A stretch of 63,032 nt of DNA, counting the filler, from Folioceros fuciformis (lineage: Eukaryota): the NCBI GenBank assembly GCA_049999805.1. It is 6 parts of 6 records of this genome, joined end to end, with 100 filler letters (N's around TTAATTAATTAA, not from the genome) between each part and the next. Parts side by side here need not be neighbours in the genome. Positions count along the whole stretch, not along the records: positions 59,423 to 63,032 come from JBNGIO010004614.1; 5 more parts are not named here. One strand, written 5' to 3'. The notes below the pieces were generated by a model that saw only the letters and a list, made by a program, of their open reading frames with translations, did no database searches and was not told the origin of the DNA. Positions 3 to 63,032 of this stretch are shown piece by piece (the first letter of the stretch is position 1; each line of letters opens with the position of its first letter). The translations under genes and the position numbers were made by a program.

Positions 3-806
3 ATCAACGCCCATGGTGGGACTGATGAAAACGGAAGGCAGTACGTTCGCTTAGGTGTGAAAGACAAGGCCGGGAAGCTTTATGTTGAAGATGATATTTT
101 GAAGCCCATCGCTGAATGCACGCTTTTGGCAAACAAACCTAAGGTAATTCTCATAAATGCATGCCGAGGCACTGGCACCCTTGTCGGAAGCACTGGCAAT
201 CTTGTCACAAGCAAGAAATCGCAGGTGTCAAGCACCGCCAACCCTGCAACCAGCAGCAAAGCCAAGGTGTCAGCCGTTGAGGGAAGCCAAGTTGTGAGCA
301 ACAGAGTTCGACAAATGTCTTCTGCAGAAGACCGCCTAATCGTTTTCTCCACCAGTCCTGGAGATGGATCTTTGAGATATGTCGAGGAAGGCACAAACTT
401 CATCATAGCTTTGATGGAAGCCATCGTGGAGGGCTCTGAAACAGAAGATGTCTTGTCTATTCTGACAAGCGTGATTGGCAAGGTGATGGACAAGGACGTC
501 CAACACAAAACCAAAGACGGGGACTATGAGAAGAAATGTGAGAGTCCTGAGCTCCGCAGCACATTGACCAAAAAGCTATACTGGTCTCGACCACCCAAGA
601 CTCCTGTCATGCCTGGCTCGAGTGAGTACCATGCGGCCAGGGCTTGTAATGCCTTCAATCAAGTGTCAGGTATTCTCTTCAGCTGCATGTTGTTGGTCTA
701 TTACATACTGCTTCTGATAAATCTTGTCACTTCTCCCTTGCCCGGGGGACTTTCCTGTTTGGTAGGAGAGACCTCTCACAGCGTCCTGATGGAGATGAAC
801 AGATGA
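3..806 (+). CDS. Caspase-like cysteine protease (peptidase C14, animal caspase-type p20/p10 motifs); 5'-partial. Probable intron 670-765
   Basis: The frame is open from the window edge: INAHG (His codon 12-14), LANKPKVILINACRG (Cys codon 162-164), p10-like AEDRLIVFSTSPGDGSLRYVEEGTNFIIALMEAI, and SPELRSTLTKKLYW (ends 584). G|GTATTC at 670 and TTGGTAG| at 765 would remove the hydrophobic in-frame stretch. Confidence 0.8.
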   Translation: MNAHGGTDENGRQYVRLGVKDKAGKLYVEDDILKPIAECTLLANKPKVILINACRGTGTLVGSTGNLVTSKKSQVSSTANPATSSKAKVSAVEGSQVVSNRVRQMSSAEDRLIVFSTSPGDGSLRYVEEGTNFIIALMEAIVEGSETEDVLSILTSVIGKVMDKDVQHKTKDGDYEKKCESPELRSTLTKKLYWSRPPKTPVMPGSSEYHAARACNAFNQVSGILFSCMLLVYYILLLINLVTSPLPGGLSCLVGETSHSVLMEMNR

Positions 807-5569: not shown

Positions 5570-5800
5570 CTGGTTGCTCAGGAAGGGGGTGTCCGATCCA
5601 CATCCCGCCTGCATGATAAGAGCGTGAGTGCACGTACGTAACGCAAGGCAATGCTTGCTCCATAAAAAGTCCTTTAGAAGAGTGCAGAAGAGAGATTTGG
5701 AAATGTAGCAATGTGTGAGCACAAGAATACCCACAGTCTCAACAGCCTGATTGAGCTGGCCCTCATGACAAAGCTTCCCACAGGTTTCAGCCGTCACGTC
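5570..5800 (-). pseudogene. Degenerate N-terminal fragment of a PLS-PPR gene
   Basis: TAETCGKLCHEGQLNQAVETVGILV...SKSLFCTLLK aligns to TAATVSMLCHQGKLSEAVGALESLV...SQSLFYTVLK of the PPR gene in piece 6. Confidence 0.7.
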
Positions 5801-6015
5801 ACTTTGGCATCCTGCAGACTCACAGATAGTCGCAGTAGTAGGCCAGCTTCAGTTGCTTTACTATTCCACAAATGTGTGGGCTCTCGAGGAGGATGTGACC
5901 TCAAAACTGTTGGCGGCTAATAGATCCCTAAAAGATCAAGCTTCTCCAAGAATAAGCTAACACTGCAATAGTACAGTTGTGGACTGGTGGCACCCACTTT
6001 CTCGTCTGGTTCTAC

Positions 6016-10196: not shown

Positions 10197-13100
10197 ATGG
10201 CAGCGGACGGGGACTGTGACTGGCGCGAGTTGCCGGAGAAGTTGCAACAGCTGCTGGTAGATCTGGAAGGCAATGCCGTGTTCTACCTCCCCGACTTGCA
10301 GGGAGAGGAGTACGGCGACTTCTTCAGAAGTGGAGCTTCAAGCAAGAGGGATGGCAGGCACTGGCGAGTGCGGAAGCGGGTATTGACAGCTATTGGCCAG
10401 TGCTGCAGTCTCGTCAACCTGGAAATCTCTGATTGCTGGGAGATCGGCATCGCTCGGGAGGATGAATGCGCGGTTCTGTCGGAGGGCCTGGCATCTAACC
10501 CTTCCCTGGAAGAACTTGATCTCGATGGGTGCGAAGGTTTTGGAAAGCTGGCGGGTTGCAAGACCTGGGCGAGCTTATTACTTCCAGTCGCAGCCTGCGA
10601 CGGCTGAAGGCACCTTGGATCGAGCTTGATGCCACGGGACTTGGTGCACTGGTCGAAGGCTTCTTCAACAAGGATTGTGTCCTGGAGTATTTGAACCTAA
10701 ATGGGAACAATGTGGGAGATGCTGAAGGTGCACGGCACGTGGCTCGCATGCTGGCTACCGCTCCCCGTCTCAATACCCTGGATCTGCGTATGACCGGTCT
10801 GAATGAGGCAGGAGCCCAGTGCATTGCGAACGCTCTTCCGCTCAGTGCCACGCTCAGGGAGCTTTACTTGGATACGCGATTTTATGGCTGGTATACAGAT
10901 TGGGGTTCCGTACAGGGCAGCCTGGGGCCCTTGAGCACTGTGTTGAAACTTGCTTTCACCCGTGCTGAGGCTGATGGTGATACCGCCATATCTGGGGTCA
11001 CCAAGCTGATGTTGAAGCTCGGGAACAGCTCTGAGCCAGGCCTGGCCGACGCGCTGGCCGGAATGTTGCGCACCAACGATCGTATAACGGAGCTTGAGAT
11101 GGACGCTTCTGCTGTCGACTTCGGCCTGGACGCCTGGCGCCACAACTCTACCCTCTCCAAACTTGAGTTGTTTGGCCGTACCTACGGTGACAAGTCTGCG
11201 AGTGAATTTTCTATGTCGTTTGTGGAATGCAAATCATTACGTGTCTTGACTTTGAGGAAGATATACTGGCCCTGTTTCATGAAAACGTTGTTGCGGTCTT
11301 TGGAGAAAAATACATCCTGGAATGAGCTCAACATTGTGAAATGTGGTAAACTCGATGATGCGGTGTCCAGAGAGTTGATGCAGTTTGTCCGAGCCAGCAC
11401 CACTTTATGGAAGATCAACATGTACGGCACAGTGTGGGATTGGAAAGAGAATGTGGCCATCATCCGCGCAACGGTGGCACGAAATGCTAGTCAGAGCCAC
11501 CAGTGGGAGAGCATTGCGGAGGAGGAGAAGGAGGAGAATGACTGGAGCGCGATGCCGGCTAAGCTGCGACAGCTGGTGATACATCTGGAACGGAATGCCT
11601 TGTCCAAACTCCCCTGGTTGGGCGCTGAGGGATACGGTGATTACTTCATTAATCGAGAGATGTGTTGGATGGATGGTCACTACTTCGGAGAGCTTGGTCG
11701 TCGTAGGAGGCACTGGCGAGTACGCGAGCGGGTATTGACAGCTATTGCTCAGTGTCGAGGTCTCGGCGGCGACTTCACGATCTCTCCGGACTGGGAAATC
11801 GGCATCGTTCAGGAGGATGAATGCGCGGTCCTGCTTGGGGCCTTGGCCTCTAACCCTTCCTCGGAAGCTCTTGATCTGGCTGGGTTCAAATGCTTTGGAA
11901 AGCTGCTGGGTTGCGAGGCCTTGGGCCAGCTTATTGCTTCCAGTCGCAGCTTGCGACAGCTGGATGTAGGCTCGATTGGGTTTGATGCTGCGGGACTTGG
12001 TGCCCTTGTCGACGGCTTTAACAAGGACATCGTCCTGGAAAATTTGGACCTAAGTTCGAACAGAGTGGGAGATGCTGAAGGGGCTCGGCACCTGGCTCGC
12101 ATGCTGGCCACCGCTCCCCGTCTCAATACCCTGGATCTGCGTCGGATCGGCATGGATGAGGCGGGTGCCCAGTGTACATCCAACGCTCTTCCGCTCTGTG
12201 CCACGCTCAGGGAGCTTTTCTTGGATAATGGAAATCCGGATGACGGGCCTGGAAGCTCGGGCACCCTGGGGCCCCTGTGCTCTGTGTTGAAACTTGCTTT
12301 CACACGTGCTAATGCTGATGCCGCCATATCTGGGGTCACCAAGCTGATGTTGGATATCCGGAACTTCCCTCCGTATGAGGCACCGGGCTTCTGGAGGCTC
12401 ACCATCCGCCCTCGGCCAAGCCTGGTCGACGCGCTAGTCGGAATCTTGCGCACCAACGATCGTATCACGGAGCTTGGGATCAGCTATTATGTACCCTTGC
12501 CTGGCTTCTTCAGGTCGTTTGAGGACGGGCTTTACTGTCCGACAAGTTCTCTGGAGTGTAAATCATTGCGCATCATGACTTTGAAGGGGCTTCATTGGCC
12601 CCGTTTCTTGGAACTGTTGTTGCAGTCTTTGGAGAGCAACACATCTTTGAATGAGCTCAACATTCTGGACTGTCGTCATCTCGACGATAAGCTCTTCAGA
12701 AAGTTGATGCAGTCCCTCCAAGTCAACACCACCTTGCGGAAGATCGACATACACGGCACAAACTGGGCTGAGGAGGGAAAGCAGGCCATCATCAACGCGA
12801 CGTTGGCACGCAATGTTATTCACAGGGCCTACTAGCCTTTGCTTTCGGAGGGACAAGAGGCTGTGAAGCCCAGGGACGGGCGCCTTTTCCTGTGCGGTGC
12901 ACCTTTCGCAGGCAAGACTACTCTCCGCACCACCATGATTAAAGCATGGCGCGCATCTCAAACACACACAAGTACAGGAGCCGCATCACCCGACCAGACG
13001 AGTACTGTCAACAGAACAGAAGGAATAGAAATCGAGGTGCTGCGCGACGACGATGAGATGGAAGTTACCATCTGGGATCTGGCTGGACAGGCTCACTACC

Positions 13101-14645
13101 GAGCTCTGCAAGACTACTTGTTCCCCAGCTTCAACCAGGCATGTGTTTTCTTGTTCACTTTCAACCCATTTGATACCGATAAGCCTGGTGGTCCCGTCCC
13201 CTCTGGAGAAAAAATTCAGAACAAGTTCACCAAGAGCTTCACCTTTTGGCTCAGATTCATCCACTCTAACTCTCGCAACGTGGGTTCCTTTTTGCCTCGG
13301 TTATGTGTGGTTGTCACACATGAGGATGAAATGAAGGATCTGGAGGCTGAATTACTACTCGATCTGCTGCAACCAGTCGTGGACAAGTTGGCCAAGCATT
13401 TTGCGGAGGTACATCTTATCACGACAACGCCCTTCTTGATGGATGCTCGATGCGGAGAAACTGTTCAGCCCTTGCTGGAGAAGCTATTCCAATCTTTTGA
13501 AGAGCTATTTGCGCTTCCTCTGTTTCGGGTCCCGGAGGCGTGCAACCGATTCAGTGCTGTTTTGACTCAGTGGGCATCTCAAAATCCAGCTCACCCTATT
13601 GTGACGAAGGAGTTCTGCAAAACGTTGTTTGAAGAAAAAGATGAGCAACGCCTTGAAGCAATTCTTACCTATGTGCACAATGCAGGCAGGGTCATCTGGT
13701 TCCAAGATGCAGATGCTGTGGTGGTCAATCCACACTGGATCAGTCATTGGTTTCTGGGACGTTTGATTGATCTCCTACCTGGACCGTCTTCTTTGGGAAG
13801 ATTGCCAGATTGTGGATTTGTTGCTAAAAGGTTCCTGTATAGCACCTTGGCCCAGATCCTCGAGAACCCGAAGGCGGCCGACGAGATTGGTGATGACACG
13901 CCGGCGGCCGACAGGATTGGTGTGGAAGATCTGGTGTCATTGATGATAAAACTAAACTTGTGCTATCCAGATGATACGAATCGGGGTCCTGGATTCTTCG
14001 TTCCCTTCATCTTAGATGACAGTGACGGTAAAGCTCTTCGAGGGGAACGACAGTTGCACTGGGAGGGGGGTACGCCGGGCAAGTACAACTACGTAGGGAG
14101 GCGGCTTCAATGCCGAGATGAAACTAAGACGTTACTCGGTCCAGGCTTCTTTCCAAGATTCCAAGTACTTTACATTGTGATCTGTCTTTCTAGATTTGTT
14201 GTTAGTGATTCATGCTCTCTTGGGTTTCCTGACATCATCGCCAACGGTTGTGCATTGTAGGTCAAGTTACGACAGATCTTGCTCGACGGGCTCCCCGGTA
14301 TGGAATCGTTTCAATATGGGATTGCATGGAACTTGATAAGATTTAAGTATGGTGGTATGGATGTTTTCTTGGAGAGTAGCGGGGATATTGGGGAGGAGAC
14401 CGGGGACATTGTCGATCGTGTTGACATTTTGATGAGGTCACTCAAGAGCAAGGACGAAACGATCCACTTTCTCCAGAAGCTTCTTGTTGCAGAGCTGAGA
14501 GCATTTTGTGCTTCTCCTGAAGGTAGTCCTGGAATTCAGCTTGTAGAAGGGATCATCAGGACGGAGTGTGTGGAGAAGCTCACACCTTGTATTCACCGAC
14601 ACAATCAATCAGTTCTCACACACAGGTTGATGGATTGCTTCTCCC
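10197..14645 (+). pseudogene. TORNADO1-like LRR-ROC-COR (ROCO) gene with a duplicated LRR module; frameshift ~10560, in-frame TAG 12833-12835, intron 14165-14260; 3'-truncated by the linker
   Basis: RI-type LRRs (LEYLNLNGNNVGDAEGARHVARML), ROC P-loop RLFLCGAPFAGKTTL, G2 RTEGIEI, G3 IWDLAGQ and G4 VVTHED. COR motifs VGRRLQC..LGPGFFPRFQ|V and LRAFCASPEGSPGIQLVEGIIRTECV resemble plant TRN1. Confidence 0.85.
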
Positions 14646-14745
14646 NNNNNNNNNNNNNNNNNNNNNNNNNNNNNNNNNNNNNNNNNNNNTTAATTAATTA
14701 ANNNNNNNNNNNNNNNNNNNNNNNNNNNNNNNNNNNNNNNNNNNN
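14646..14745. other. Artificial scaffold-joining linker (N44-TTAATTAATTAA-N44); also at 28804-28903, 43061-43160, 52100-52199 and 59323-59422
   Basis: An identical 100-nt structure with stop codons in all six frames occurs five times. Confidence 0.97.
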
Positions 14746-28803: not shown

Positions 28804-28903
28804 NNNNNNNNNNNNNNNNNNNNNNNNNNNNNNNNNNNNNNNNNNNNTTAATTAATTAANNNNNNNNNNNNNNNNNNNNNNNNNNNNNNNNNNNNNNNNN
28901 NNN

Positions 28904-29386: not shown

Positions 29387-32300
29387 TGAAGCTTTGCACA
29401 GGATCGAGAGGGAGGAAGGAGAGGATGCGCGCATAAATCAAAAAGGAAAAAAAACTTGATATATATTTTGGGTCCTGTGTGTCCCTTTTTCATNNNNNNN
29501 NNNNNNNNNNNNNNNNNNNNNNNNNNNNNNNNNNNNNNNNNNNNNNNNNNNNNNNNNNNNNNNNNNNNNNNNNNNNNNNNNNNNNNNNNNNNNTTTCATG
29601 TCCCGAGAGTTAGTTTTTTAGGGCACGTTTCGCGTCCCTTTACATCTGGCTCTTTGAATCTTGTGATCCAAAACGTCCTTAATTTAATTAATATTTTATG
29701 TAATATTTCTATAATACTAGGCTACTTAGATAACCTATCTACTTTTACTCCTGCTTAGCCTGCATTTCTACTTGTTACTGTTAGGGTAAGGTGGCAGTCG
29801 TCGAAGCTTTGGATTACTCCTGTAGTCAAAAAAACTGATCTTCAGTTGGAGCTCACAACCATGCCTATTGTTGTAACGCTGCCTGTGATGTATTCACGGA
29901 TGAAGACAGGCTGATAATCAGAAATGATGTGCTTGACGAGAATTAGCTCCCACTACTGGTGGAGTTCTCTGCAGCAACAAAGAAACTGATTTGCTGTGTG
30001 TTGTTGCAGACCCTTGATGGCACTACACCACCGTGATGCCACTTCAGCGATTCCAAGCTCAATGGCGTTCCTCCTACCTCTGCAATATCTTGTAGTTGTG
30101 CCTTCTAAGTAGAAAAATTATTCTTATGCATCTGGATTTTCAACCATTCCCATTGCCTTGCAGAACCTTTCGTGCTTATCACGAGCTAGGGCTTTAGTAA
30201 GGATATCAGCTACGTTTGCCTCTGTTGGGACATACTGAAGATTGGCTTGCCCTTCAGTGACTACTTGCCTGATAAAATGGTGTTTAATTTCTATGTGTTT
30301 TGTCCTAGCATGCATGATTGGATTTTGAGCAAGGGCAATGGAGGATTGATTGTCACTTAGTAATAGTGTGGGTGCNNNNNNNNNNTGCTAACAACTCTCG
30401 GCCATGTATTATTTCTTGTGCAGCTGTGGTGGTAGCAATGTACTCAGCTTCAGTGGAGGATAAGGCCACTACCTGCTGCTTCTTACTATGCCAGGAAATG
30501 ATGGTGGACTGAAACTCATCTTTGCTGAGCATCAAGCAATGGACCGAGATTGACTTCCTGCTATCTGTATCAACAGCCCAATCTACATCACAAAAGCAAG
30601 TGAGCAGCAAATTCTCTGGTTGCTTGGTGTACAGTAGTCCTCGATTCAGGGTGCCTCCAAGGTATCTAAGGATCCTTTGAACTACATGCCAATCTGCACT
30701 CCCATAATTTGTAAGGAACTGAGATGTAACACCTATAGAGTGTGACAGATCAGGACGAGTCCAGTTTCCGAAGTAAATAAGTACTCCCACTGCAGGTCTG
30801 TATGGTATAGATGCCATTTGCTATCGTTCCTCCTCTGTTTTTGGTGACTGGTCATTTGTTAGCTTCTCCCCAGTTGCCATCGGTGTTGGTGCAGGTTTGG
30901 CATTTTGAAGACGGAACCTAGCAAGAACTTGGTGCACGAATTGTGATTGGTGTATGAAAATACTGTGTCTGGCTAGATTATGATGTATTCGAATACCAAG
31001 GAAGAATGTAAGCTGACCAAGGTCGGTCGTGGATAATTCTGAAGTCAAAATGGCTTTAACCTTTGACATGGCTGCAGGATTGCTAGAAATAAGGACAACA
31101 TCATCTACGTAGAGTGCTAAATACACCAGCCCATCTTTGTCATGTAGTTTGTAGACATTACAATCAGCATTGCTTTGGACAAACCCACAACTCCTAAGGT
31201 ATGTGTCTATTCTCTTGTACCACTCTCGTGGTGATTGCTTAAGCCCATAAATTGTTTTTACAAGTCTACATATCTTGTTAGGATGCTGCGGATCTACATA
31301 CCCCTCTAGTTGCCTCATGTAGATGGTTTCTTCAAGGTTTCCATTGAGGAATGCCGTTTTTACGTCCATATGTTGCAAGTGGTAGTCATGCTGGGCTGCT
31401 ATGGCAAGAAGAGCACGAATGGAAGTTGCTCGAACTACAGGTGAGAATGTTCCTGTATAGTCAAGCCCCTCCACTTGACTGTACCCTCTTGCAACTAGTC
31501 GAGCCTTGTATCGTGCAATAGCCCCGTTGGCGTTCAGCTTTGTTTTAAAGACCCACTTGCATGTTACAGTCTTCCTTCCAGGTGGCAAGTCTTCAAGCAG
31601 CCATGTTTTATTATCTATGAGAGACTGGTATTCAAAATTTATTGCCTCAATCCACTTTTGTGCATCCTTCCCATTTATGGCCTCTTGGTATGACTGAGGA
31701 TCTCCCGTGTCTAGAAGACCACTGTCATCCTGTACCAAGAAGGACTTGTATGTCAAGGGAGGTTGTGCCCACTCTAATGGTGAAGTTGTACGATGACATG
31801 TCCCAATGTCAGTCCCTTTGCGCAGGACAGCAGGTGCAGGTTGTGCAGAAGTTGCAGGAACTTCGACTTCACTTGCATCTGAATCTGGCTGCACACTGCC
31901 GATGTCCTGCAAATTTTCACCCTCACTTGCACCATAGTCGATTGAAGATTCTTGAGAGGAAACTCCTTCTACATCATCCTCACTGTCGAGGTCGGGAAAC
32001 TCACTTGGCTCTTCATCACTTTCAGGGTCTATAGAGGGTTGTGTATTTCCTGATTGAGAGGTACTAGCTGCAGGATGTGAGACTACTGTGGAACCCTCTA
32101 TGTAGCTTGTGTCATCAGTAAGCAGACCTTCGTCAACATCATCAATTAAGGTACAACGGGCAGATGGGTTTAGAAGTAATTGTTCATTGAATATGACACT
32201 ACGTGCATGAACAGTGGTATGAGATGTAGGATCATACAGTTTATAGCCCTTAACTCCCTCGGTGTAACCTATGAAGACATACTTATGTGCTTTATAATCC

Positions 32301-35300
32301 ATCTTAACCTTTGTGCTTCAAAAAGATGTGCATAAGCAGGTGAACCACAAATACGAAGGTGATTGATGCGTGGCCTATGACTAGTCCATCTCTGGAAAGG
32401 GGTAGCACCATCAAAGAATTTGGTAGGGACTTTATTTTTGATATAGACTGCAGTGCCAACAGCTTCTGCCCAGTAAGTTTTAAGCAAACCTGCCAGCTTG
32501 AGCATGGATTTGGCTTGCTCTTGCACATGCTTATTGTGAAGTTCAGCTATGGGATTTTGCGAGGATGTATACGGCACAGTGAGCTGCCGTGCTATCCCCA
32601 GCTCCTTGCAATAATCTTTGAACTCACTGGAATTGTACTCACCACCGCCATCTGTACGTAGAGCCTTGAGGAATTCTCCAGTCTGGCGCTGAGCAAAGGT
32701 AACATACTCTTGGAAACAGCCAAAGGTCTGGCTCTTGTGCTTGATAAGATAGATTATAGCATATCGACTCCAATCATCGATACAAGATAACATATATAGA
32801 GCACCACCAAGTGAAGGAACTGACATAGGGCCACAGAGGTCGGAGTGAACCAGCTCCAAGAGTTTAGTCACCGTTGTGGGATTCTCATCCTTGTATGGGG
32901 CTCGGTGATGCTTGCCAAAAACACATGCTTCACAGAACAGTTTCTCGGCAAACTGAAGCATGAACTTCTCTCGGTATAACACGTCGTTGTTAACCATTTT
33001 CTGAAGTTTGTCGAAGTTGATGTGTGCTAGGCGACAATGCCATAGCATGACTTGGTCCTTGGCTTTAGTGGCTTGATTGACATGTGTCTACTCCTTGAGG
33101 AATTGGTGTCCTAACTTAGATGTGACATTTAGTTGATAGAGGTCATGACGAGGGGTGCCTTTAGCTAGAATTTTGTTCTTATGCTGTGGGTCTGTGATGA
33201 CGCTGTGTAGGCCTGAAAATGACACATCTAAGACATGTTGGACTGTGAGCTTGCGGACAGATACTAAGTTTTTAACCATAGAGGGAACATGAAGGACGTC
33301 TAAGAGATGCAGTGTGCTCCTGTCAGCTAGCTGAATAGGCACTGTCCCAATGCCTTCTATGTGAAGTCCACTATCGTCGCCAAGAAGAACAAACTGACCA
33401 GGTGGAAGATTCTTATACTCAAAAAAGGCATTCTTGTCATGGCAATAATGTGATGAGGCTCCACTATCAATAAACCAGACACTCTTGTCTGAAGAGGTTG
33501 ATATCATGCATACAACAAGGAGTGCATTAGGTTTTCGTTGTACCACATTGATCTCAGATGGAGGAGTCGAACGCCTGGGCTCACCTGATTTCTTCTTGCG
33601 GCACTCTGCCTCCCAATGGCCAGGGATCAAGCACCAATTACATGGTCCCTTCTTCTTTCCTGTTGTAGGTGAGGGACGCTTCTTGAAATGTGTTGAAGTT
33701 TCCACTGTTGGAATTTGCTTGCCAAGGCTGACGAGGCTGTCTCTTCGGGCCTTTGTTCATGTAAAGTGCTCGATTCGATGACTCTCCTCTGTGGGAGGTA
33801 CCTCTGCTTGCCTTCCTTGTGGACTCTTCCTCGAGAAGAGCTCCAATAATGTCAGACAGTGTCACAGATGGCTGTTGACCTGCTGATGCAGCCTGTGTTG
33901 CGTTCCTCAGCATCGAACTCTGATTGTTGGCAAAGGTTCGATAGCTCTCTGGCAAAGACAGTAACAAGGCAACTGCTGCTTGCATCTCTATTGTCTTTGT
34001 GCCACTTGAAGAGAGATTAGATCTCAAAGTTTTGAACTTGATGATGTGATGTTCAACTGAATCTTGCTCTCGCATTTTGCAGTTGTAGAAATCTCTGGTT
34101 GCACTGACCAAGGAAGAACCATTGACTACTTGATATACTTGGGATAGGGAGTCCCACACAGCTTTGGTGGACTTAGCATCATGTGTGTGATGCATCATCG
34201 TGCCATCAAGGGCAAATTGGATGACACTTAAAGCCCGAAGGTCAAGTTTGGCCCAAGCATCTTGCTCAGCAGCTGTTGATGTTGGAGGAGGTTTTGGTAC
34301 AGCCCCAGTGACAACGCCCCAAAGATCATTTTCTTTTTAGATAGTTTGGACTCTAAGAGACCAGATGTCAAAGTGTGTGCTTGTGAACCTGTCTTTCTCT
34401 TTAAAGTCTACCTTAAAATTATGCACTGTGGTGTTGTTTGTGACTATATTTGGATGTGCTTGTGCCATAGTCCCCACTAGTTGTGCTGCTAAGGCTGCCC
34501 TAGTGACTTGTACAACGGATTCAGCCCAAGTATTTTGTGGCCTTAGGGTTGTTTGTGCAAGATCATGAATTTGAGCTGTTTGTAAGTTTGATAGTGACGT
34601 TTATGTGCTACCCTGTGAGGAGTCACTCTGTGCTTCAATCTGATAGAGTGACAGAGGGTCTACAAGTAAGGGAAAACTTGGATCTTGGTCTCCTCTTCCT
34701 TGTACAGCACCCCTGTTCACACCTCTACCACGGCCTCTACCTCGAGGATCACTGTTGCATCGGTTCTTGTTATTATATGACATATACAAAAAATCACAAC
34801 GGGATACCTGCCTCCTCCTCTAAGGCATATAGTTGATGAATATGCCTAGGAAGGAATTCTTGCAGTGCCAGAATCATTTTTCATGTCTGATTGTGGCATG
34901 TGTGAAGGTGTGTCAACGTGTGCTGTGTTATTTAATGACAAATTGTGAACTAGATGTGCAAGGTGGGCAACTTGATTATCTGTGCTCTCAGCCTTGTTTC
35001 TCAATTAAGCAATGTGTTGTCTGGTCTGAACGGCATGGGACTTCACTAACTCATTAATCTCACAAAGCATGTGGTTAAATGGACAGGGAGATGTGTTAAG
35101 ATCACAAGTGCACGTACTGCAGGTGCGTGAACGTGAAGAGATGAAAGCTTGAATAGAAATCGCACATGAGTGCGCTATCTCCCTCCTAATTTGATTGCGC
35201 AGCCCTGCAAGCGGATCAGGTTTAGAGATGTGCCTAACCTGCCCTCTGTTATTTGTGTCGTGCGTACATGCTGGGTGGTTGCAGGGATTTGAGAAGAAGT

Positions 35301-40719: not shown

Positions 40720-43060
40720 TGTATAGGGCTATTATGATTATCATTTTAATACCCCTTCATTAAGAGTCATGTCCCTTAGTGAAAGGTTATGTCTGTTCAT
40801 AACAACTTAAGTTCAGTTAGCCACTTTTGATAAGTGCTGTCATTGTAATATTCTTTTATCAATAATGTAATTGTATAATATAGCAATTGATCTACTCCAA
40901 TTCATTTCAATATTTGTCATGGTATCAGAGCCATGCTTTGGTGTAGATTGCATTCATAAGAATGCACATTAAATTCTGCACAATTTGATGTGCAGATGGA
41001 TCAATTTGGTTGTTGTTTTCTTTTAAGGAAAATGTTTTAAAAACATATCAAAAAAGTATTTTATAGTTTTTCTTTGGATTTTATTTTGAAATTTTGCATT
41101 TCTAGGAGTTTGTTGTAGAGCATCTATTGACAGATTGCATCTTTGCATTCTGACAATAGGCAAGCTAGAACAACTGCCAGAATTGGCAAAAATTCTATTA
41201 TAGAATCATAATACAAAATTTTAAAATGTTTCTTAATACACAATAAAATACAAAATTGGCAAAATGAATGGCCAATTTGGTGGACAGGCAGCGATGGCGG
41301 CCACGCCCTACTGAATGAAATCGACAGAGGGATGTCTACATAAGACAATTGGCACAAGAGGACAAGCTAACAATTGCTAAATCAGTCTACCAACAAACCC
41401 TGGAGTGAATTCTTCAAACTCAAGATCAGCCTAAGCGCACTCGTGTCATAAGGGAGTCGTATAATAATCTTCTTGATGCTATCTTCCCTCAACAACGTCA
41501 CCTGTTGCTTGCTCAACCACTCAGGAATCCTACTAATCTTCCTTTGGTCGGAAATGGTAACCCTAGAGGTTTTCTAACCACACACATATCACCACATATT
41601 GGTGTGTCACAATTGAATGCTAGGATAGAAACACATCAACAGCATGTTGATGAGAGTTTTCAGAGCATCTGTCACAAACTTGCTTTAGTTAGTGTTGACT
41701 TGCAAGAATTGAAGGAACAAATAGTACATTTGGATTTTAAGTTACTAACCTTATTGAAACCTGCCTTGCTTGCAAATCCTGCTCTTAGAGGGATTGCATG
41801 CAAGCGTGCAAATAAGAAATATAACTTACATACCTTCGATGCACCAAATTCCTGTGCTTCGTGCTCTACCTATGCATTTAATATATTAGAGATTAGAAAT
41901 CAAAGTATATCACATTGAGTAGCAAACCAATCTGCCATCTTACCTGTGGTAGATCACTTTGCAAACCCTCTGTAGATAGGGCTGCTGCTGTAGCCTATCT
42001 AAGATGCAACAGTAGCATCTTACTGCTCCCCTGCTTTTTCTATTACCAGGATTGTGTACCTTATCAAGATAGGTCACAGATTTGCACACAGCCAACATCC
42101 TAACAGTTAGGACAGGATTTCCAGAATCCTAAAATGGCTGACACCACTAACTGAGTCGTGATGGGTTTAAAGAGAAAGACCAGTTTGGGGGGGTAGACTA
42201 TGACATTTGGGTCATGCGTATGCGTGGAGCCCTGCAAAATAAAAGACTTTGGAAGATAGCCACTGGAGAGGAAATACTCCCTGGCTCTTCTTCCCCTGAA
42301 GCTACCCCTTCTTCTGCTAAATCAAGATACCAAGAGGCTTGGTACATTAAGGATGAAGCTGCAATGTATTTAATAAGAAGTGGACTAACCTCTGACATGC
42401 TTAGACTGACATCTGGATGCAAAACATCTACTCAAATTTGGTCCAGGTTACAAGATCTGTATGCAGGTGTAAATACCACAAGTCAAATGACTGCCCTTCG
42501 AAATATACAAAATTGCAGAATGAGAGAGGGGGATACAGTTGAAAAACATATTGGGCACTTTAGAACATTTGTTTCTAAATTAGAAAGTGCTTCTCAGGAA
42601 ATTCTTAGTGATGAAATACTTACCTTGTATTTCATGATGTCTCCTCCTGACTCCTGGTCACATTTTGTGACCTCATACAATGCCTTTCAACTTCAGGGTG
42701 CTAAGATTGCTAAGGCTGCAAATGTCACTATACCACAAACAACATTTTCAGAGTTAGTGGGAGCTCTTCTTCAAGAAGAAGCAACAAGAGGTCAAAATAA
42801 GCGTGCTGGCAAGCAGCAGGCTCTTTACACCACAAACAAAAACAAAGGTGCAATGTTCGGGTAGAACCATGGTTAGAGTGCAAAAAGGAAAACAAAGCAA
42901 AGGTCTAATTGAGAACATAAACATAATACCATACAAGTAAAGTAGGTTTGTGTGTTCTAAGTACTTCTATCTAGGCAACCCTACTCAAGGTGTCTTTTGG
43001 ATGTATGACTATAACAATATATTTCTAAACCCTAAGCCGTGCCAGCTTATATATTTAACA
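40720..43060 (+). mobile_element. Copia element: 200-bp LTR 40720-40919 (TG...CA), PBS 40920-40932, gag ~42140-42864
   Basis: tggtatcagagcc directly after the CA. UBN2-type gag MRMRGALQNKRLWKIATG...MREGDTVEKHIGHF. Confidence 0.8.
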
Positions 43061-43160
43061 NNNNNNNNNNNNNNNNNNNNNNNNNNNNNNNNNNNNNNNN
43101 NNNNTTAATTAATTAANNNNNNNNNNNNNNNNNNNNNNNNNNNNNNNNNNNNNNNNNNNN

Positions 43161-50384: not shown

Positions 50385-51802
50385 AGTGCAGCTTCTCAGG
50401 TGTACTGGTTGAAACAACTGGTGGACTTGAAGATGAAGGAAGGGACGAGGATGTCCGATCATCTGAACGAGTTCAATACCATTTTCAGCCACCTCTCATC
50501 TTAAGGTATCTCGTTCCCAGATTCCCTGAGAGCTATGTTTCTGTTGGTCACAATACCAAAAAGCTGGGACACCTTTCGTACAGCTCTGAGTAATTCCGCT
50601 CCTGCCAGTGGTCTTACCATTGTAAATGTAGAAGGTAGCCTGTTAACAGAGGAGGTGAACAGGAAGAATATGGAACCTTCGAAAGGTTTCAATGCCCTCA
50701 TGGTGAGAGGAAGGTCCACTTCAAAGGGGAAGTACAAGGAGCGAAGTTCTTCCCGTAGTAAATCTCCTAGTCGTAACAATGTTGAGTGTTACCATTGTCA
50801 CAAGAAGGGGCACATCAGGAAGGACTGCGAGAAGTTTAAGAAGGACAAAGGAAAGGAGAAGAAACAAAGCGACAACAAAGCAAGTCCGAGTACCAAGCCT
50901 AACGAGGTGAATTCTGTTGACGATGGAGATGTTCTTATCTCTTCTTCCTTCGATTCTGCACAATTGACAGCCGTGGAGAGTCACTTATTCTCTAATTGGA
51001 TAATTGACTATGGAGCATCTTTCCATGTTACTCCGCATAGGGAGTAGTTTAGCACGTATGATGCTACTAGGAAAGGATGTGTACGGCTTGGAAATAACTA
51101 CGCATGCGAGATTGCAGGCGTTGGTGATGTGCAATTGAAGTTCGACAACGGATCTTCATTCGTATCAAAGGATGTTAGGCATGTTCCCAAGTTGGCTAAG
51201 AGCATGATTAGTGCAGGGCAGTTGGATGACGCTGGCTACCACTGTTGGTTTGGAGATCGTTCTTGGAAGATCTCCAAAGGTTCTCTTGTGTTAGCTCGTG
51301 GATCGAAGTGTGGCACTTTGTACTCACTTCAGGTAACCACTGTCAAGGATCATGTGATTTGTGCAACGGAACAGCCAAGTGTTTCCTTGTGGCATAGTCG
51401 GTTAGGACATATGTCTCAAAAAGGAATGAAGATACTATCTCATTTTGGTTACGTCTTTGCTTTTGACTTCTCCGATTTCTCCGTGTGTGAGCACTGTCTG
51501 TATGGGAAACAGACGAAGTCACCACATGGAGAAAGAGCTAAACACAAAAGTAAACCTCTTGAGTTGGTTCACAGTGACGTTTGTGGACCTATGCCCACTG
51601 TATTGTTAGGCGGTGCATCCTATTTTGTCACTTTCATTGATGATTTCTTACGCAAGGTGTGGGTTTATCCTTTGAGAAAAAAGGATGATGTTCTGATAGT
51701 GTTTCATAAATTCGTCTCCCTTGTGGAGAATAATTCTGGCCTCCGACTGAAGTGTCTAAGGATTGACAATGGGGGAGAGGATGTTTCGAAGGCTTTCAAG
51801 TC
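50385..51802 (+). mobile_element. Second copy of the same Tnt1-like Copia, inverted relative to 46058-48355
   Basis: KQLVDLKMKEG, CYHCHKKGHIRKDC, LWHSRLGHMS and LELVHSDVCGPM; very similar to the minus-strand copy. Confidence 0.9.
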
Positions 51803-52099
51803 TGTGAACGAAAAAAACTTTCAGAACCCCCATTTTGAGCGACGGAATGAGCAGGTTGTGATTTTTTTTTGTGAACGGACAAGCGAATTGGCTTAGTAGG
51901 TGAATAAGACCAGGGTGTTTATACCCAAAGTCCCCCTTGGGCTTCGGGGTTTGGGTTGTACTGGAGACCGGGACAAGGAGGGGAAATGAGCAAGTGCCTC
52001 CTTGGCCCTCGGGTCATTGAGAACATTAAGCACCAGGTCTGTAGGTAGGTGAGTGGGGTATGTCCTTGGCCTTTGGTGGTCCGGGACCCCTTAGGTCTC
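51803..52099 (+). mobile_element. LTR start inserted in a Copia integrase
   Basis: The TG start breaks the frame after SKAFKS. Homologous to 45803-46057. Confidence 0.75.
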
Positions 52100-52589
52100 N
52101 NNNNNNNNNNNNNNNNNNNNNNNNNNNNNNNNNNNNNNNNNNNTTAATTAATTAANNNNNNNNNNNNNNNNNNNNNNNNNNNNNNNNNNNNNNNNNNNNG
52201 ATGAACGTGGAGAACCTAGCAAACAAACTTAAAGAGCAGAATCTGATGGTAACCCACCCAAATACAACCCTATATTATTGTCGCTATGATTGAAAGGCCA
52301 AAATCTCCATGATTTGAACAATAAGACATTCACAAGATAGGCTACATGCCTGTAAGTAGGCGGGGCACACACTTGTGCGCGCCTTGGTATTGTAGTTTAC
52401 TAGAAAAAAGCTGATTTGGAAATGATGTTTGAAGCATGCGTTATATCAATGTCCGCTTTCCTTAGAAAACAGAAGTGTCTAAATTTGCGTAGCAATAGCT
52501 GTCGGCCTTCTCAAACCCTCGAGTTGTAGTAGATCACATTTTTGGAGGGTGGTGCGTTGCCATATGACTGGAGCAAAAGGCAAAAGAAG

Positions 52590-58969: not shown

Positions 58970-59422
58970 AGTACCTATGTTGAGATAGCGAGAAGATGCG
59001 TCCCATCTCCACGTTGTCGAGCTAAGGGTGAAGGCTGAGATCGCGAGTGCGATAATTTGGTTGATGTGCGCCTTGAGTGGTAGCCCAATGAGGAGCAATC
59101 CGATGGGAGCTGTCGTCATCATCCTCCTCGCCCAGATTGTCTCCTCTAGTAGGCTATGAGCAATGGCGAAGGCTGGAGGGCGCGGGCTGCATGGCTGGTA
59201 AGGAGGCGATCTCCTCCTCGTCGAAGTCGCCAAAGATGTGATGAGAATCATTTCATGCTCTAAGATATGCTTACATTACTTATGTTGCTTGGAGCAAATG
59301 TTTTTATAGTACAAACGGTTATNNNNNNNNNNNNNNNNNNNNNNNNNNNNNNNNNNNNNNNNNNNNTTAATTAATTAANNNNNNNNNNNNNNNNNNNNNN
59401 NNNNNNNNNNNNNNNNNNNNNN

Positions 59423-60739
59423 TCGTCAGGCTGAACACCGGCAGCTAACATCTCCTCAAAACAAGCTAGCGCCTTGCGACCTTCATCACAAGCACCATAC
59501 CCAGCAATCAGAGCTGTCCATGTAACCACATTCTTTGTGTTCATGCTGTCAAAAACCTGGCGGGCATATTCCACCTCACCACATTTTGCATACATGTCCA
59601 CCAGGCAGGTTCCCACCACTACCTCGTCCAGCACACCTCTGTTGACAATCTGTGAGTGCAGCTCCCTTCCCTTCTGCAAGGCACCAGTGCTTCCACACGC
59701 CTTCAGAAGGCACGCAAAAGTAACATCATTAGCCAAAACGAGGCCTGCCTCCTCCATCTGTCCATACACAACAAGCGCCTCTTCGCCGAGTCCTTGCTGT
59801 GCATACCCAGCGATCATGGCTGTCCAAGTCACCACATCCTTCGAGACCATGCCGTCAAAAACCTGGCGGGCACATTCCAGCTCACCACATTTTGCATACA
59901 TATCCAACAGGTGGTTTCCCACCACTATATTATCCAGCAGTTTTCTCTTGACAATCTGTGAGTGAAGCTCCTTGCCCTTCTGCAAGGCACCAGTGCTTCC
60001 ACACGCCTTCAGAATGCAAGCAAAAGTAACATCATCAGCCAAAACGCAACCTGCCTCCTCCATCTGTGCATACACAACAAGCGCCTCTTGCCCGAGCCCT
60101 TGCTGTGCATACCCAGCAATCAGGGCGGTCCATGTCACCACATTCTTTGTGTTCATGCTGTCGAAAACCTGGCGTGCATCTTCCATGTGGCCACATTTTG
60201 CATACATGTCCACCAGGCAGTTTCCCACCACTATATCATCCATCAGCTCCCTCTTGACAATCTGTGAGTGGAGCTCCCTGCCCTTCTGCAAGGAACCAGT
60301 GCTTCCACACGCCTTCAGAAGGCACGCAAAAGTAACACCGTCAGCAAACACGAGGCCCGCCTCCTCCATTTGTGCATACACAACAAGCGCCTCTTGGCCG
60401 AGTCCTTGCTGTGCATACCCAGCGATCAGGGCCGTCCATGTCACCACATCCTTCGTGGCCATGCTGTCAAAAACCTGGCGTGCATATTCCAGCTCACCAC
60501 ATTTTGCATACATGTCCACCAGGCAGTTTCCCACCACTACATCACCCAGCAGTTCTCTCTTCACAATCTGTGAGTGGAGCTCCCTGCCCTTCTGCAAGGC
60601 ACCAGTGCTTCCACACGCCTTCAGAAGGCACGCAAAAGTAACACCGTCAGCAAACACGAGGCCCGCCTCCTCCATTTGTGCATACACAACAAGCGCCTCT
60701 TGGCCGAGTCCTTGCTGTGCATACCCAGCGATCAGGGCC
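59423..60739 (-). CDS. PLS-class PPR array (306-bp P-L-S triplets) ending in a P2-like motif; C-terminus lost at the linker
   Basis: VVTWTALIAGYAQQG / GVTFACLLKACGSTG / VVGNCLVDMYAKCG repeats; final motif ALIAGYGACDEGRKALACFEEMLAAGVQPD. Confidence 0.95.
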
Positions 60740-60839
60740 NNNNNNNNNNNNNNNNNNNNNNNNNNNNNNNNNNNNNNNNNNNNNNNNNNNNNNNNNNNNN
60801 NNNNNNNNNNNNNNNNNNNNNNNNNNNNNNNNNNNNNNN

Positions 60840-61635
60840 ACCAGTGCTTCCACACGCCTTCAGAAGGCACGCAAAAGTAACACGGTTAGCCACCACGAGG
60901 CCCGCCTCCTCCATTTGCCCATACACAACAAGTGCCTCTTCGCCGAGTCCTTGCTGTGCATACCCAGCGATCAGGGAATTCCATGTCACCACATCCTTCG
61001 TGTCCATGATGTCAAAAACCTGGCGTGCATCTTTCATTCGCCCACATTTTGCATACATGTCCACCAAGCAGTTGTTAACAAACAAGTCAGTACGGAAGCC
61101 ACTGTGCAACACGTCGCGGTGCACTGTTCTGCCAGATTCTAAGTCAGCAGCAAATGCACAAGCTTGTAGGGCGGCTACAAAGACATAACCATCCGCCTTC
61201 ACTTCTGACCTACGCATTTCATGGTACAGTTGTATGGCCTCCTTCGGCTTACCGTGCTTGGCATGTGCAGAGATTATGGAAACCCACATGAAGACATCCG
61301 GTTTCCCTACCCTGTTGAACACATCCATCGCCTCCTTTAGCCGACCTCCACATGCATACATGCGCAAGATATGGTTCCCCAAATATGCATTCGACTCGTA
61401 CCCCAGTCTGACTGTGAGATTATGAACTCGTCGCCCCACCACCAAATCCTTCTTAGCTGTACAGAGTTTTAACACTGTGTAAAACAAAGACTGAGAAACG
61501 CCAGAGCCTGACTGCACCAGAGATTCCAGGGCTCCAACGGCCTCAGAAAGCTTCCCCTTATGACATAACATGCTCACGGTTGCAGCAGTTACGACGCCCG
61601 TTTCCAATTCTGCACGCCTGCCAGATCCACGCTTA
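60840..61635 (-). CDS. PLS-PPR N-terminal repeats (second copy of the 61736-62270 segment plus following motifs)
   Basis: An open frame between gaps that differs from the upstream copy by several substitutions (HKG/HQG, VRL/VKL, WVS/WFS, LHS/LRS). Confidence 0.85.
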
Positions 61636-61735
61636 NNNNNNNNNNNNNNNNNNNNNNNNNNNNNNNNNNNNNNNNNNNNNNNNNNNNNNNNNNNNNNNNN
61701 NNNNNNNNNNNNNNNNNNNNNNNNNNNNNNNNNNN

Positions 61736-62847
61736 CCACTGCGCAACACGTCGCGGTGCACTGTTCTGCCAGATTCTAAGTCGGCAGCAAATGCACAAGC
61801 TTGAACGGCGGCTACAAAGACATAACCATCCGCCTTCACTTCTGACCTACGCATTTCATGGTACAGTTGTATGGCCTCCTTCGGCTTCCCGTGCTTAGCA
61901 TGTGCAGAGATTATGGAAAACCACATGAAGACATCCGGTTTCCCTACCCTGTTGAACACATCCATCGCCTCCTTTAGCCTACCTCCACATGCATACATGC
62001 GCAAGATATGGTTCCCCAAATATGCATTCGACTCGTACCCAAGTTTGACTGTGAGATTATGAACTCGTCGCCCCACCACCAAATCCTTCTGAGCTGTACA
62101 GAGTTTTAACACTGTGTAAAACAAAGACTGAGAAACGCCAGAGCCTGACTGCACCAGAGATTCCAGGGCTCCAACGGCCTCAGAAAGCTTCCCCTGATGA
62201 CATAACATGCTCACGGTTGCAGCAGTTACGACGCCCGTTTCCAATTCTGCACGCCTGCCAGATCCACGCTTATACAGAGAGCTGCACTCGAAAGAAGAGA
62301 CTCCATGGCCCATTGGATGTAGAAGTGCTGGGTTTCTTACACTGCTGCCCCTGGAGCCCATTTCACCACCGGTAAGCCTTCCAGGTTCAGGGTTATCTGG
62401 AGAGCTCAATTTGGAAGCAGAGGAACCCAGACCCATCTGCATATCCAACGAGACGAGCTGTTCATCAACCCATGCTGGCTTAAACCTGCTGTCCAACCAT
62501 AGCACCTCGCCGGACCCCTTCCGCCGGAAGTCAGGGGAACGGGAGCTCTTCTTGTCTCGTCTGTTATCCCACCACATGGTAGGGTCCAGAAAAAGTTGTT
62601 GCCACAAGTGCTCCTGCTGCTCCTGGCAACTATCAGCATCGTCGGAAAACCCGTCCCTGCCCACAAACGTTCTCGCTCTCGGAGGTGGAAGTGCTGGGAT
62701 CCTGACACTGCTGCACCTGCAGACTGTGTTTCCAAAGGGTCCACTCCCGAAGCTGAGGTGAGCGGGGGTTCCTGGTAGAGTCCTTGTACACACACCAATT
62801 CCAATTTGTTGGGTCGACGACAGGTCCGGTTGCCATACTGTGGCCAT
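61736..62847 (-). CDS. PLS-PPR protein N-terminus: probable organellar transit peptide, OSB-type PDF motif (62455-62604) and first PPR motifs
   Basis: ATG at 62847 and an S/T/P/R-rich N-terminus. WQQLFLDPTMWWDNRRDKKSSRSPDFRRKGSGEVLWLDSRFKPAWVDEQL is followed by L-S-P-L motifs in the same uninterrupted frame. Confidence 0.88.
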
Positions 62848-63032
62848 CTTTCAGGGACCGCTGTCGGAAGATGACTTGCACAAAAGTCTCGTCTAGGCAG
62901 ATCCCCGGCCGGGTACACTGTACGTACGTATGTATGACCACTGCAACCTGAAGGGCTGAACCGTGAGCCTTCCGGCGTGAAGGGGTGAGCCGTCCTATAA
63001 TACTTGTGGGCGACCTGTCGGACTGGTGCTTC

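Follow-up and report, generated by a model that had tools for sequence, protein, structure and literature searches.

An OSB-Type PDF Motif Ahead of the PPR Array in a Folioceros fuciformis Gene and in an Unannotated Family of Seed-Free-Plant Proteins

Can a module known from plant proteins that bind single-stranded DNA (ssDNA) be a working part of a protein of the organellar RNA-editing type? The question is raised by a gene at the end of a 63,032-nucleotide (nt) stretch of Folioceros fuciformis DNA (assembly GCA_049999805.1; the whole stretch is called the window here), where one reading frame on the minus strand holds the PDF motif of organellar ssDNA-binding (OSB) proteins ahead of pentatricopeptide repeats (PPRs). 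PLS-class PPR proteins are usually pictured as a PPR array between a targeting peptide and an E/DYW end, with no extra N-terminal domains. We report that the window gene belongs to a sizeable unannotated family of seed-free-plant genes whose products carry one to three PDF modules before the PPR array. We lean modestly toward reading the window locus as an incompletely assembled nuclear gene for a PLS-class PPR protein of the organellar RNA-editing type, in which the PDF module would act as an accessory nucleic-acid-binding part.

RESULTS

One reading frame carries the motif into the PPR repeats

The open reading frame (ORF) lies at 62847..61633 on the minus strand and starts MATVW, with its ATG at 62847..62845 and an in-frame stop one codon upstream. 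From this ATG the frame is unbroken for 370 codons, up to an assembly gap at 61735. The motif pattern quoted in the initial annotation for 62604..62455 is present exactly there as residues 82 to 131 (WQQLFLDPTMWWDNRRDKKSSRSPDFRRKGSGEVLWLDSRFKPAWVDEQL), on the minus strand, which had not been given. Pfam PPR repeats begin downstream in the motif's own frame, which bears out the claim that a single uninterrupted frame runs through the motif into the PPR part. A six-frame scan of the window found no second copy of the motif. The parts of the gene are as follows.

62626..62847 (-): start codon and N-terminal presequence, residues 1 to 74, from the ORF list; nonconserved, predicted disordered
62437..62625 (-): PDF motif module, residues 75 to 137; 81.4 bits with an OSB-derived hidden Markov model (HMM), 74.9 bits in the six-frame scan
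62203..62436 (-): linker, residues 138 to 215; predicted disordered, nonconserved, exceeding the linker of relatives by about 45 residues
61736..62202 (-): first PPR repeats, residues 216 to 370, by Pfam PPR matches; run into a gap of 100 N's
60840-61635 (-): second copy of the linker end and first PPR repeats, then further PPR repeats, between two 100-N gaps; repeat family D3, Pfam PPR matches, and tblastn matches to the relatives P0152 and P0154
59423..60739 (-): PLS array made up of tandem P1-L1-S1 units, each of 306 nt, with a P2-like motif at its end; repeat families D1/D2, Pfam PPR 242 bits

Residues 1 to 70 are nonconserved, disordered, and poor in acidic residues by composition, and residues 1 to 74 may be a putative organellar transit peptide.

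Profile searches identify the motif as an OSB-type PDF repeat

The PDF motif is described as about 50 residues long with conserved Pro, Asp, and Phe, and the copy from AtOSB1 is sufficient for ssDNA binding (PMC6963530, in excerpt). OSB1 and OSB2 prefer ssDNA over double-stranded DNA or RNA (PMC4166229, in excerpt). The Pro-Asp-Phe signature stands at residues 105 to 107 of the window ORF. Pfam has no family for the motif part of this ORF and places PF01535, PF13041, and PF12854 PPR matches downstream of it.

We searched 1.84 billion representative proteins by phmmer with a 69-residue segment (residues 72 to 140), which returned 673 proteins at E ≤ 1e-3; of these, 183 reached E ≤ 1e-10 and 19 reached E ≤ 1e-30. 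Many of the proteins were matched in 2 to 13 separate stretches. A Pfam scan of the best 150 of the 673 matches found the OSB layout, with an SSB domain (PF00436) ahead of the motif copies, in 33 of these 150, PPR repeats in 7, and a kinesin motor in one, and most others had no Pfam family at E ≤ 1e-5. A profile made from the 57 motif copies of the 33 SSB-domain proteins matched residues 75 to 137 of the window ORF with all signature residues aligned (i-Evalue 3e-18, Z set to 1.8e9), a score that is partly circular because those copies had been retrieved with the window motif. When ten PPR-linked motifs (alignment A2) were made into a profile for another search, 32 of the 120 matches listed are named OSB1, OSB2, OSB3, or organellar ssDNA binding protein by NCBI/UniRef, and 20 carry PPR Pfam domains. 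A word-indexed search of the motif region against proteins of nearly the same length gave no match, and a search of the ESM Atlas with residues 70 to 140 gave no usable match.

By sequence comparison, the match to OSB-type motifs is far beyond chance. The first identification of the motif as the PDF motif of OSB proteins held both for the profile derived from SSB-domain proteins and for the matches, which include proteins of OSB layout and proteins named OSB1, OSB2, and OSB3; at the level of sequence, homology of the module to OSB PDF repeats is secure.

PDF-PPR fusions occur in other plants

The initial annotation had supposed that similar fusions may exist unannotated in seed-free plants, and they do. 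We found at least 27 other proteins in which a PLS-type PPR array is preceded by one to three PDF copies: 7 from the phmmer search, 2 (P0152 and P0154) from querying with the window ORF, and 18 more from the A2-profile search, the count being a lower bound drawn from the best-listed matches. Seventeen of the 27 come from the annotated genome of the lycophyte Diphasiastrum complanatum, and P0060 comes from the fern Adiantum capillus-veneris. All 27 are labeled hypothetical, uncharacterized, or plain pentatricopeptide repeat. The PDF copies precede the PPR array in every one of them, as a single copy (n = 6), two copies (n = 14), or three copies (n = 7). Since the fusion recurs in 27 other proteins, the architecture is no assembly artifact of the window. 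Another of the fusions, P0164, is an ORF in a transcript-style EukProt record (c21901_g1_i1), and in at least one organism both parts are probably transcribed into one mRNA.

The sole internal PDF copy is in P0186 of D. complanatum (1,362 amino acids [aa]), where two near-identical tandem PDF-PPR genes have been merged in the annotation. This read-through annotation implies tandem arrays of the family in the D. complanatum genome.

The motif is the conserved block of the N terminus

We aligned the window ORF with P0152 and P0154 and with three more distant relatives, P0108, P0102, and P0094 (alignment A1). The motif is the only conserved N-terminal block, with 18 columns from L81 to L134 invariant in the six proteins. 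Identities between the window ORF and the five relatives were distributed as follows.

Upstream of the motif, residues 1 to 74: 5 to 20 of 74 residues identical
Motif, residues 75 to 137: 33 to 35 of 63 residues identical (52 to 56%)
Linker, residues 138 to 215: 2 to 7 of 78 residues identical
PPR part, residues 216 to 370: 37 to 94 of 155 residues identical

In P0108, P0102, and P0094, the motif is 56% identical to that of the window ORF, versus 24 to 28% for the PPR part, a difference of more than twofold. A lack of purifying selection on the motif would have told against the fusion; at the protein level, identity is higher in the motif than upstream of it or in the linker in all five relatives and exceeds that of the PPR part in the three distant ones. 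Judged from these alignments, the conservation pattern is as expected for a functional domain under purifying selection. The motif of P0154 is partly degenerate, with CWDIR for WWDNR and RDF for PDF, and scores 50 bits versus 73 to 84 in most others; some members of the family may be under weakening constraint on the module.

The same data bear on whether the motif reaches the mature protein at all. It could be missing if translation started at a downstream methionine, and M91, M136, and M138 are present, or if it were lost through presequence cleavage or spliced out. M91, however, lies inside the conserved fold, which a start there would destroy, and in each relative conservation is higher in the motif than in its flanks, which a discarded segment would not show. 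The relatives have their own start codons 14 to 80 residues upstream of the motif, and the multicopy forms hold up to three motifs over more than 250 residues, which is too long for a presequence. A recurrent "skip" joint from 62618 to 62801, upstream of the motif, was also seen in a sequencing run thought to be DNA and is therefore paralog variation and not splicing. We consider loss of the motif from the mature protein highly improbable.

The module is predicted to fold on its own

An AF2 model of the 67-residue motif segment alone, made with A2, had a predicted local distance difference test (pLDDT) of 91.5 and a predicted template modeling score (pTM) of 0.73, with a helix at segment positions 2 to 15, strands at 20 to 22 and 35 to 37, and a second helix at 53 to 66. 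In the model of all 370 residues, made with A1, pLDDT was below 50 at residues 1 to 66 and 141 to 203 (about 30 to 42 across residues 1 to 70), the motif (71 to 137) was folded with pLDDT of 74 to 82, and the PPR helices began at residue 209 with pLDDT of 85 to 97. The module is thus predicted to be an independently folding helix/beta-hairpin/helix unit, tied to the PPR superhelix by a disordered linker of about 65 residues. In Foldseek, no PDB entry matched the motif model at E ≤ 0.001, the best E being 2.3. Across 48,161 chains, VIA-align reached a best Z of 3.7, with none at Z ≥ 5, and a sequence profile search of the PDB with the motif gave only a spurious match (E = 0.79). No known fold is assigned to the modeled unit, which does not make the fold new.

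The conserved residues of the motif (W82, F86, W92, W93, F107, W117, L118, W126, and V127) are mostly aromatic or hydrophobic and could form a core or an interface. The PPR-linked module might then serve protein-protein interaction or oligomerization, recruiting OSB, Whirly, or RecA-type nucleoid proteins or dimerizing editing factors. AtOSB2 is tetrameric (PMC6963530, in excerpt), and PDF copies are also fused to unrelated partners, such as the kinesin motor in P0039. Set against this are the sufficiency of the OSB1 motif alone for ssDNA binding and the conservation of the basic center of the module (NRRDKKSSRSPDFRRK), and no interaction data for the module were found. A role in interaction alone seems to us quite unlikely.

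The array is of the PLS class, and the missing C terminus is most likely of the DYW:KP type

Pfam PPR, PPR_1, PPR_2, and PPR_3 matches lie in tandem in all three assembled pieces of the gene. The array has a tandem period of 306 nt (102 residues), which matches the size of a P1-L1-S1 triplet, and by tblastn it aligns with residues 246 to 682 of P0152, its PLS array, at 51% identity. The P/L/S assignment rests on this period and on homology, not on dedicated P/L/S motif HMMs. The earlier placement in the PLS class agrees with the 102-aa period and with the closest relatives, which have an E motif and a DYW domain. At 59496-60713 (minus strand), four or more of the 306-nt units are 87 to 91% identical in nucleotide sequence, which suggests a recent intragenic triplet amplification or a collapse or mis-joining of paralogs.

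By tblastn there is no DYW match anywhere in the window, in which the scaffold end at 59423 falls within the P2-like motif. The DYW:KP type was reportedly defined by Gerke 2020 and Gutmann 2020. The nearest full-length relatives of the window gene, P0152 (950 aa) and P0154 (753 aa), are 59 to 61% identical to it over its PPR part, and both end in an E motif and a DYW deaminase domain. Compared with three canonical DYW domains, those of P0152 and P0154 have KPAxAGIEV for PGxSWIEV, HAE for HSE, a four-residue deletion that removes xHP, and a C-terminal GRP for DYW. These are all four of the features by which DYW:KP (GRP) domains are described, namely, KP for the PG box, HAE for HSE, loss of xHP, and a C-terminal GRP; the GRP subgroup was described from hornworts and confers U-to-C editing in designer proteins (PMC9478123, in excerpt). 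By homology, the missing C terminus of the window gene is most likely E1-E2 and a GRP-type DYW:KP domain, which would make the gene a candidate U-to-C editing factor.

The suggestion to look for an association of the motif with DYW subtypes was followed up among the 27 fusions. Two Diphasiastrum fusions, P0167 and P0240, combine canonical PG/HSE/DYW domains with two or three PDF copies, and 22 of the 27 are without a DYW signature in the last 160 residues and are E-type proteins or truncated models. DYW:KP (GRP), DYW:PG, and E-type ends all occur, and an exclusive link of PDF to DYW:KP was rejected, since DYW:PG fusions exist.

PPR-linked motifs group together

We built a FastTree tree from 66 columns of 645 distinct motif copies. 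Of the 55 PPR-linked copies, 53 fall in one clade of 66 tips with a support of 0.75, and both outliers belong to P0060 of Adiantum. Also within the clade are the last motifs of seven SSB-type/OSB-like proteins, including P0041 of Ceratopteris and P0226 of Adiantum, one copy of P0003 (Kingdonia), the short fragments P0089, P0113, and P0142, and, from Sphagnum, the two copies of a partial protein, P0236. The tree gives a weak but consistent indication that the OSB PDF unit may have been captured once or a few times, long ago, and then duplicated within PPR genes.

PDF stretches also occur in other settings. P0039 has three ahead of its kinesin motor, P0050 of Striga (1,063 aa, named "Interactor of constitutive active ROPs 2") has three, and P0002 and, from Kingdonia uniflora, P0003 are arrays of 9 to 13 stretches with no other domain. 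The module looks mobile across protein contexts.

The locus is one of many close paralogs and is imperfectly assembled

The window is plant nuclear DNA, and its last scaffold (59423-63032) carries the PDF-PPR gene on the minus strand. We aligned Logan contigs from three runs to 61736-63032 at ≥85% identity. The runs placed 796, 1,194, and 6,026 contigs, and position 62595, within the motif, was covered by 60 to 104 contigs. On this alignment evidence, the motif and PPR sequence belongs to a large family of close paralogs in the sequenced organisms, and the many close paralogs therefore explain the fragmented assembly at the locus. The only raw-read RNA run, X24, placed 0 reads and has no bearing on expression of the locus.

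A 42-nt direct repeat flanks the PDF motif on both sides, its two copies 83% identical and spaced by 366 nt.

62681..62722: upstream copy of the 42-nt direct repeat (repeat family D4), residues about 42 to 56 (..CRCSSVRIPALPPP)
62315..62356: downstream copy (repeat family D4), residues about 164 to 178 (SRGSSVRNPALLHP), in the extra-long linker

The copies encode ..SSVRIPAL.. and ..SSVRNPAL... We set aside the repeat as a trace of the original domain insertion, as relatives have the motif without the downstream copy. The linker insertion that carries this copy is missing from P0152 and P0154 in A1, and the repeat looks like a later, lineage-specific duplication in the linker.

Several observations weigh against reading the locus as a gene for an editing-type PPR protein with an accessory nucleic-acid-binding module. 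The module is nearly charge-neutral overall and basic in its center only, as counted from its sequence. Its predicted fold has no solved relative and therefore gives no independent hint of nucleic-acid binding, the clade that groups the PPR-linked motifs is weakly supported (0.75) in a tree of 66 columns, and we found no binding, localization, or editing data in the literature for any PDF-PPR protein. The preference of OSB proteins for ssDNA over RNA argues against a variant in which the module helps to bind RNA, not against one in which it tethers the protein to DNA. As for the locus, its scaffold contains two 100-N gaps and ends inside the gene, so that L2-S2-E1-E2 and any DYW domain fall beyond the scaffold end, outside the window. 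The stretch 61099-61635 nearly duplicates 61736-62272, in the 5' PPR part of the gene, and over 537 nt the two differ at 12 positions (97.8% identity); the second copy could be an allele or paralog scaffolded in series or a true tandem duplication. No contig from the three runs spans the whole of 61736-63032. The locus could be fragmentary, pseudogenic, or mis-joined.

The family may thus be real and the window locus nonfunctional or misassembled, as a pseudogene fragment or as alleles or paralogs joined in series. The gaps, the truncating scaffold end, and the second 5' PPR copy that follows the first would all fit, as would the 42-nt repeat and the extra linker segment of about 45 residues, which are not seen in relatives; the hundreds to thousands of paralogous contigs, 85 to 99% identical, make mis-joins likely. 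All three assembled pieces, however, have open frames without stops (370, 265, and 438 codons), and the mismatches between the two 5' PPR copies leave the reading frame intact. The indel variants listed near the motif among the paralogous contigs, a 3-nt deletion and a 1+2-nt pair, add up to multiples of three. We think a nonfunctional or misassembled locus rather unlikely and keep to the reading of an incompletely assembled gene.

Other features of the window

The window consists of six small scaffolds joined by spacers, and features on opposite sides of a spacer are not genomic neighbors. The scaffolds also hold internal 100-N and 10-N gaps.

14646-14745, 28804-28903, 43061-43160, 52100-52199, and 59323-59422: scaffold spacers, N44-TTAATTAATTAA-N44
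3-806 (+), 12935-14260 (+), 30821-33048 (-), 42214-42864 (+), and 51204-51896 (+): the set of five other ORFs

The other ORFs of the window include copia-type pieces (RVT_2, integrase, and gag), a caspase-domain ORF, and a Roc/COR-A ORF below Pfam cutoffs. On a different scaffold from the PDF-PPR gene, 5573-5842 (minus strand) weakly matches residues 130 to 214 of P0152, the region just ahead of and at its first PPR repeats, by tblastn (34% identity, E = 2.5e-6), and by this match it may be a fragment of another family member.

DISCUSSION

The window protein shares with OSB proteins a PDF module of about 60 residues with all the signature residues (W..LF..P..WWDNR..K....PDF.HK....LWL....P.WV). 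The two differ in layout: OSB proteins have a central OB-fold/SSB-like domain and C-terminal PDF copies, whereas the window protein has its PDF module at the N terminus, before the PPR array. OB folds in OSB proteins are poorly conserved. There was no PF00436 match in the 370-residue ORF at E ≤ 1, and its AF2 model consists of disorder, the PDF module, and helical repeats only. The only space between motif and array that is neither motif nor PPR is the segment predicted to be disordered, which leaves no room for an OB fold. With neither an OB fold nor a C-terminal PDF copy, the window protein is not a member of the OSB family; the module is borrowed.

We know of no PDF modules described in characterized canonical DYW:PG factors such as PPR56 and OTP86, which we compared by description only. 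Canonical PLS-E/DYW:PG C-to-U factors, among them moss PPR56 and Arabidopsis OTP86 (both named in PMC9478123), share the PLS triplet array and the E/DYW layout. GRP-type DYW:KP PPR proteins are resembled by P0152 and P0154, which share with them the PLS array, the E motif, KPAxA, HAE, the absence of xHP, and the C-terminal GRP; the descriptions of those proteins in the available part of PMC9478123, in contrast, mention no N-terminal PDF module. Whirly proteins (WHY1), which bind ssDNA in nucleoids and RNA as well, are a precedent for a plant organellar ssDNA-binding family that acts on RNA metabolism: ZmWHY1 is described as a multifunctional protein that binds both RNA and DNA and occurs together with a splicing factor (PMC2532728, in excerpt). 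Whirly proteins are of an unrelated fold and family and have no PPR fusion.

An already characterized fusion would have taken away the novelty of the architecture, and no description of it was found in the literature searched. No paper there joins PDF or OSB with PPR or DYW, although a mention in Zaegel 2006, Gerke 2020, or Gutmann 2020 is possible. A 2026 survey of OSB proteins kept only those with both an OB fold and a PDF motif and has no PPR or pentatricopeptide wording (PMC13393729). A kingdom-wide survey of editing factors, also from 2026, used PPR, E, and DYW profiles only and has neither PDF nor OSB in its text (PMC13386178). An OSB survey that filters on the OB fold and a PPR survey limited to PPR/E/DYW profiles would, by design, overlook PDF-PPR proteins. 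What we describe is a known class of editing factors with an undescribed accessory module, and the window locus is one imperfectly assembled member.

If the module is an accessory nucleic-acid-binding part, the PPR array would read the RNA target sequence specifically, and the tethered PDF module would add sequence-independent affinity for single-stranded nucleic acid. From OSB biochemistry, its ligand would be ssDNA exposed in transcribing or recombining nucleoids, and binding there could concentrate the factor cotranscriptionally, where transcripts emerge. An alternative ligand, equally open, would be RNA flanking the PPR footprint. The initial annotation had put forward a factor that would bind two kinds of nucleic acid and might tether editing to nucleoids or R-loops. 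To the nucleoid or ssDNA tether we would give roughly a quarter to a third of the weight within this accessory-binding reading.

These findings bear on how editing factors find nascent transcripts and on whether editing is physically coupled to nucleoids. A conserved homolog of an ssDNA-binding motif, present in dozens of editing-type proteins from lineages that edit heavily and in both directions, is a concrete and testable handle on both questions. Designer PPR-DYW:KP editors reach modest efficiencies of 22 to 50% (PMC9478123, in excerpt), and a natural PDF accessory module is a possible enhancer for them. A bolder reading, which we hold only tentatively and think unlikely as it stands, would make the N-terminal PDF the mark of a large undescribed clade of PLS editing factors in lycophytes, ferns, and probably hornworts, the last because the relatives are GRP-type. 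The clade would include DYW:PG and DYW:KP members, and the module would anchor them to nucleoid ssDNA and so couple editing to transcription. If true, PDF anchoring would make it easier to find targets in lineages whose editing sites are very numerous.

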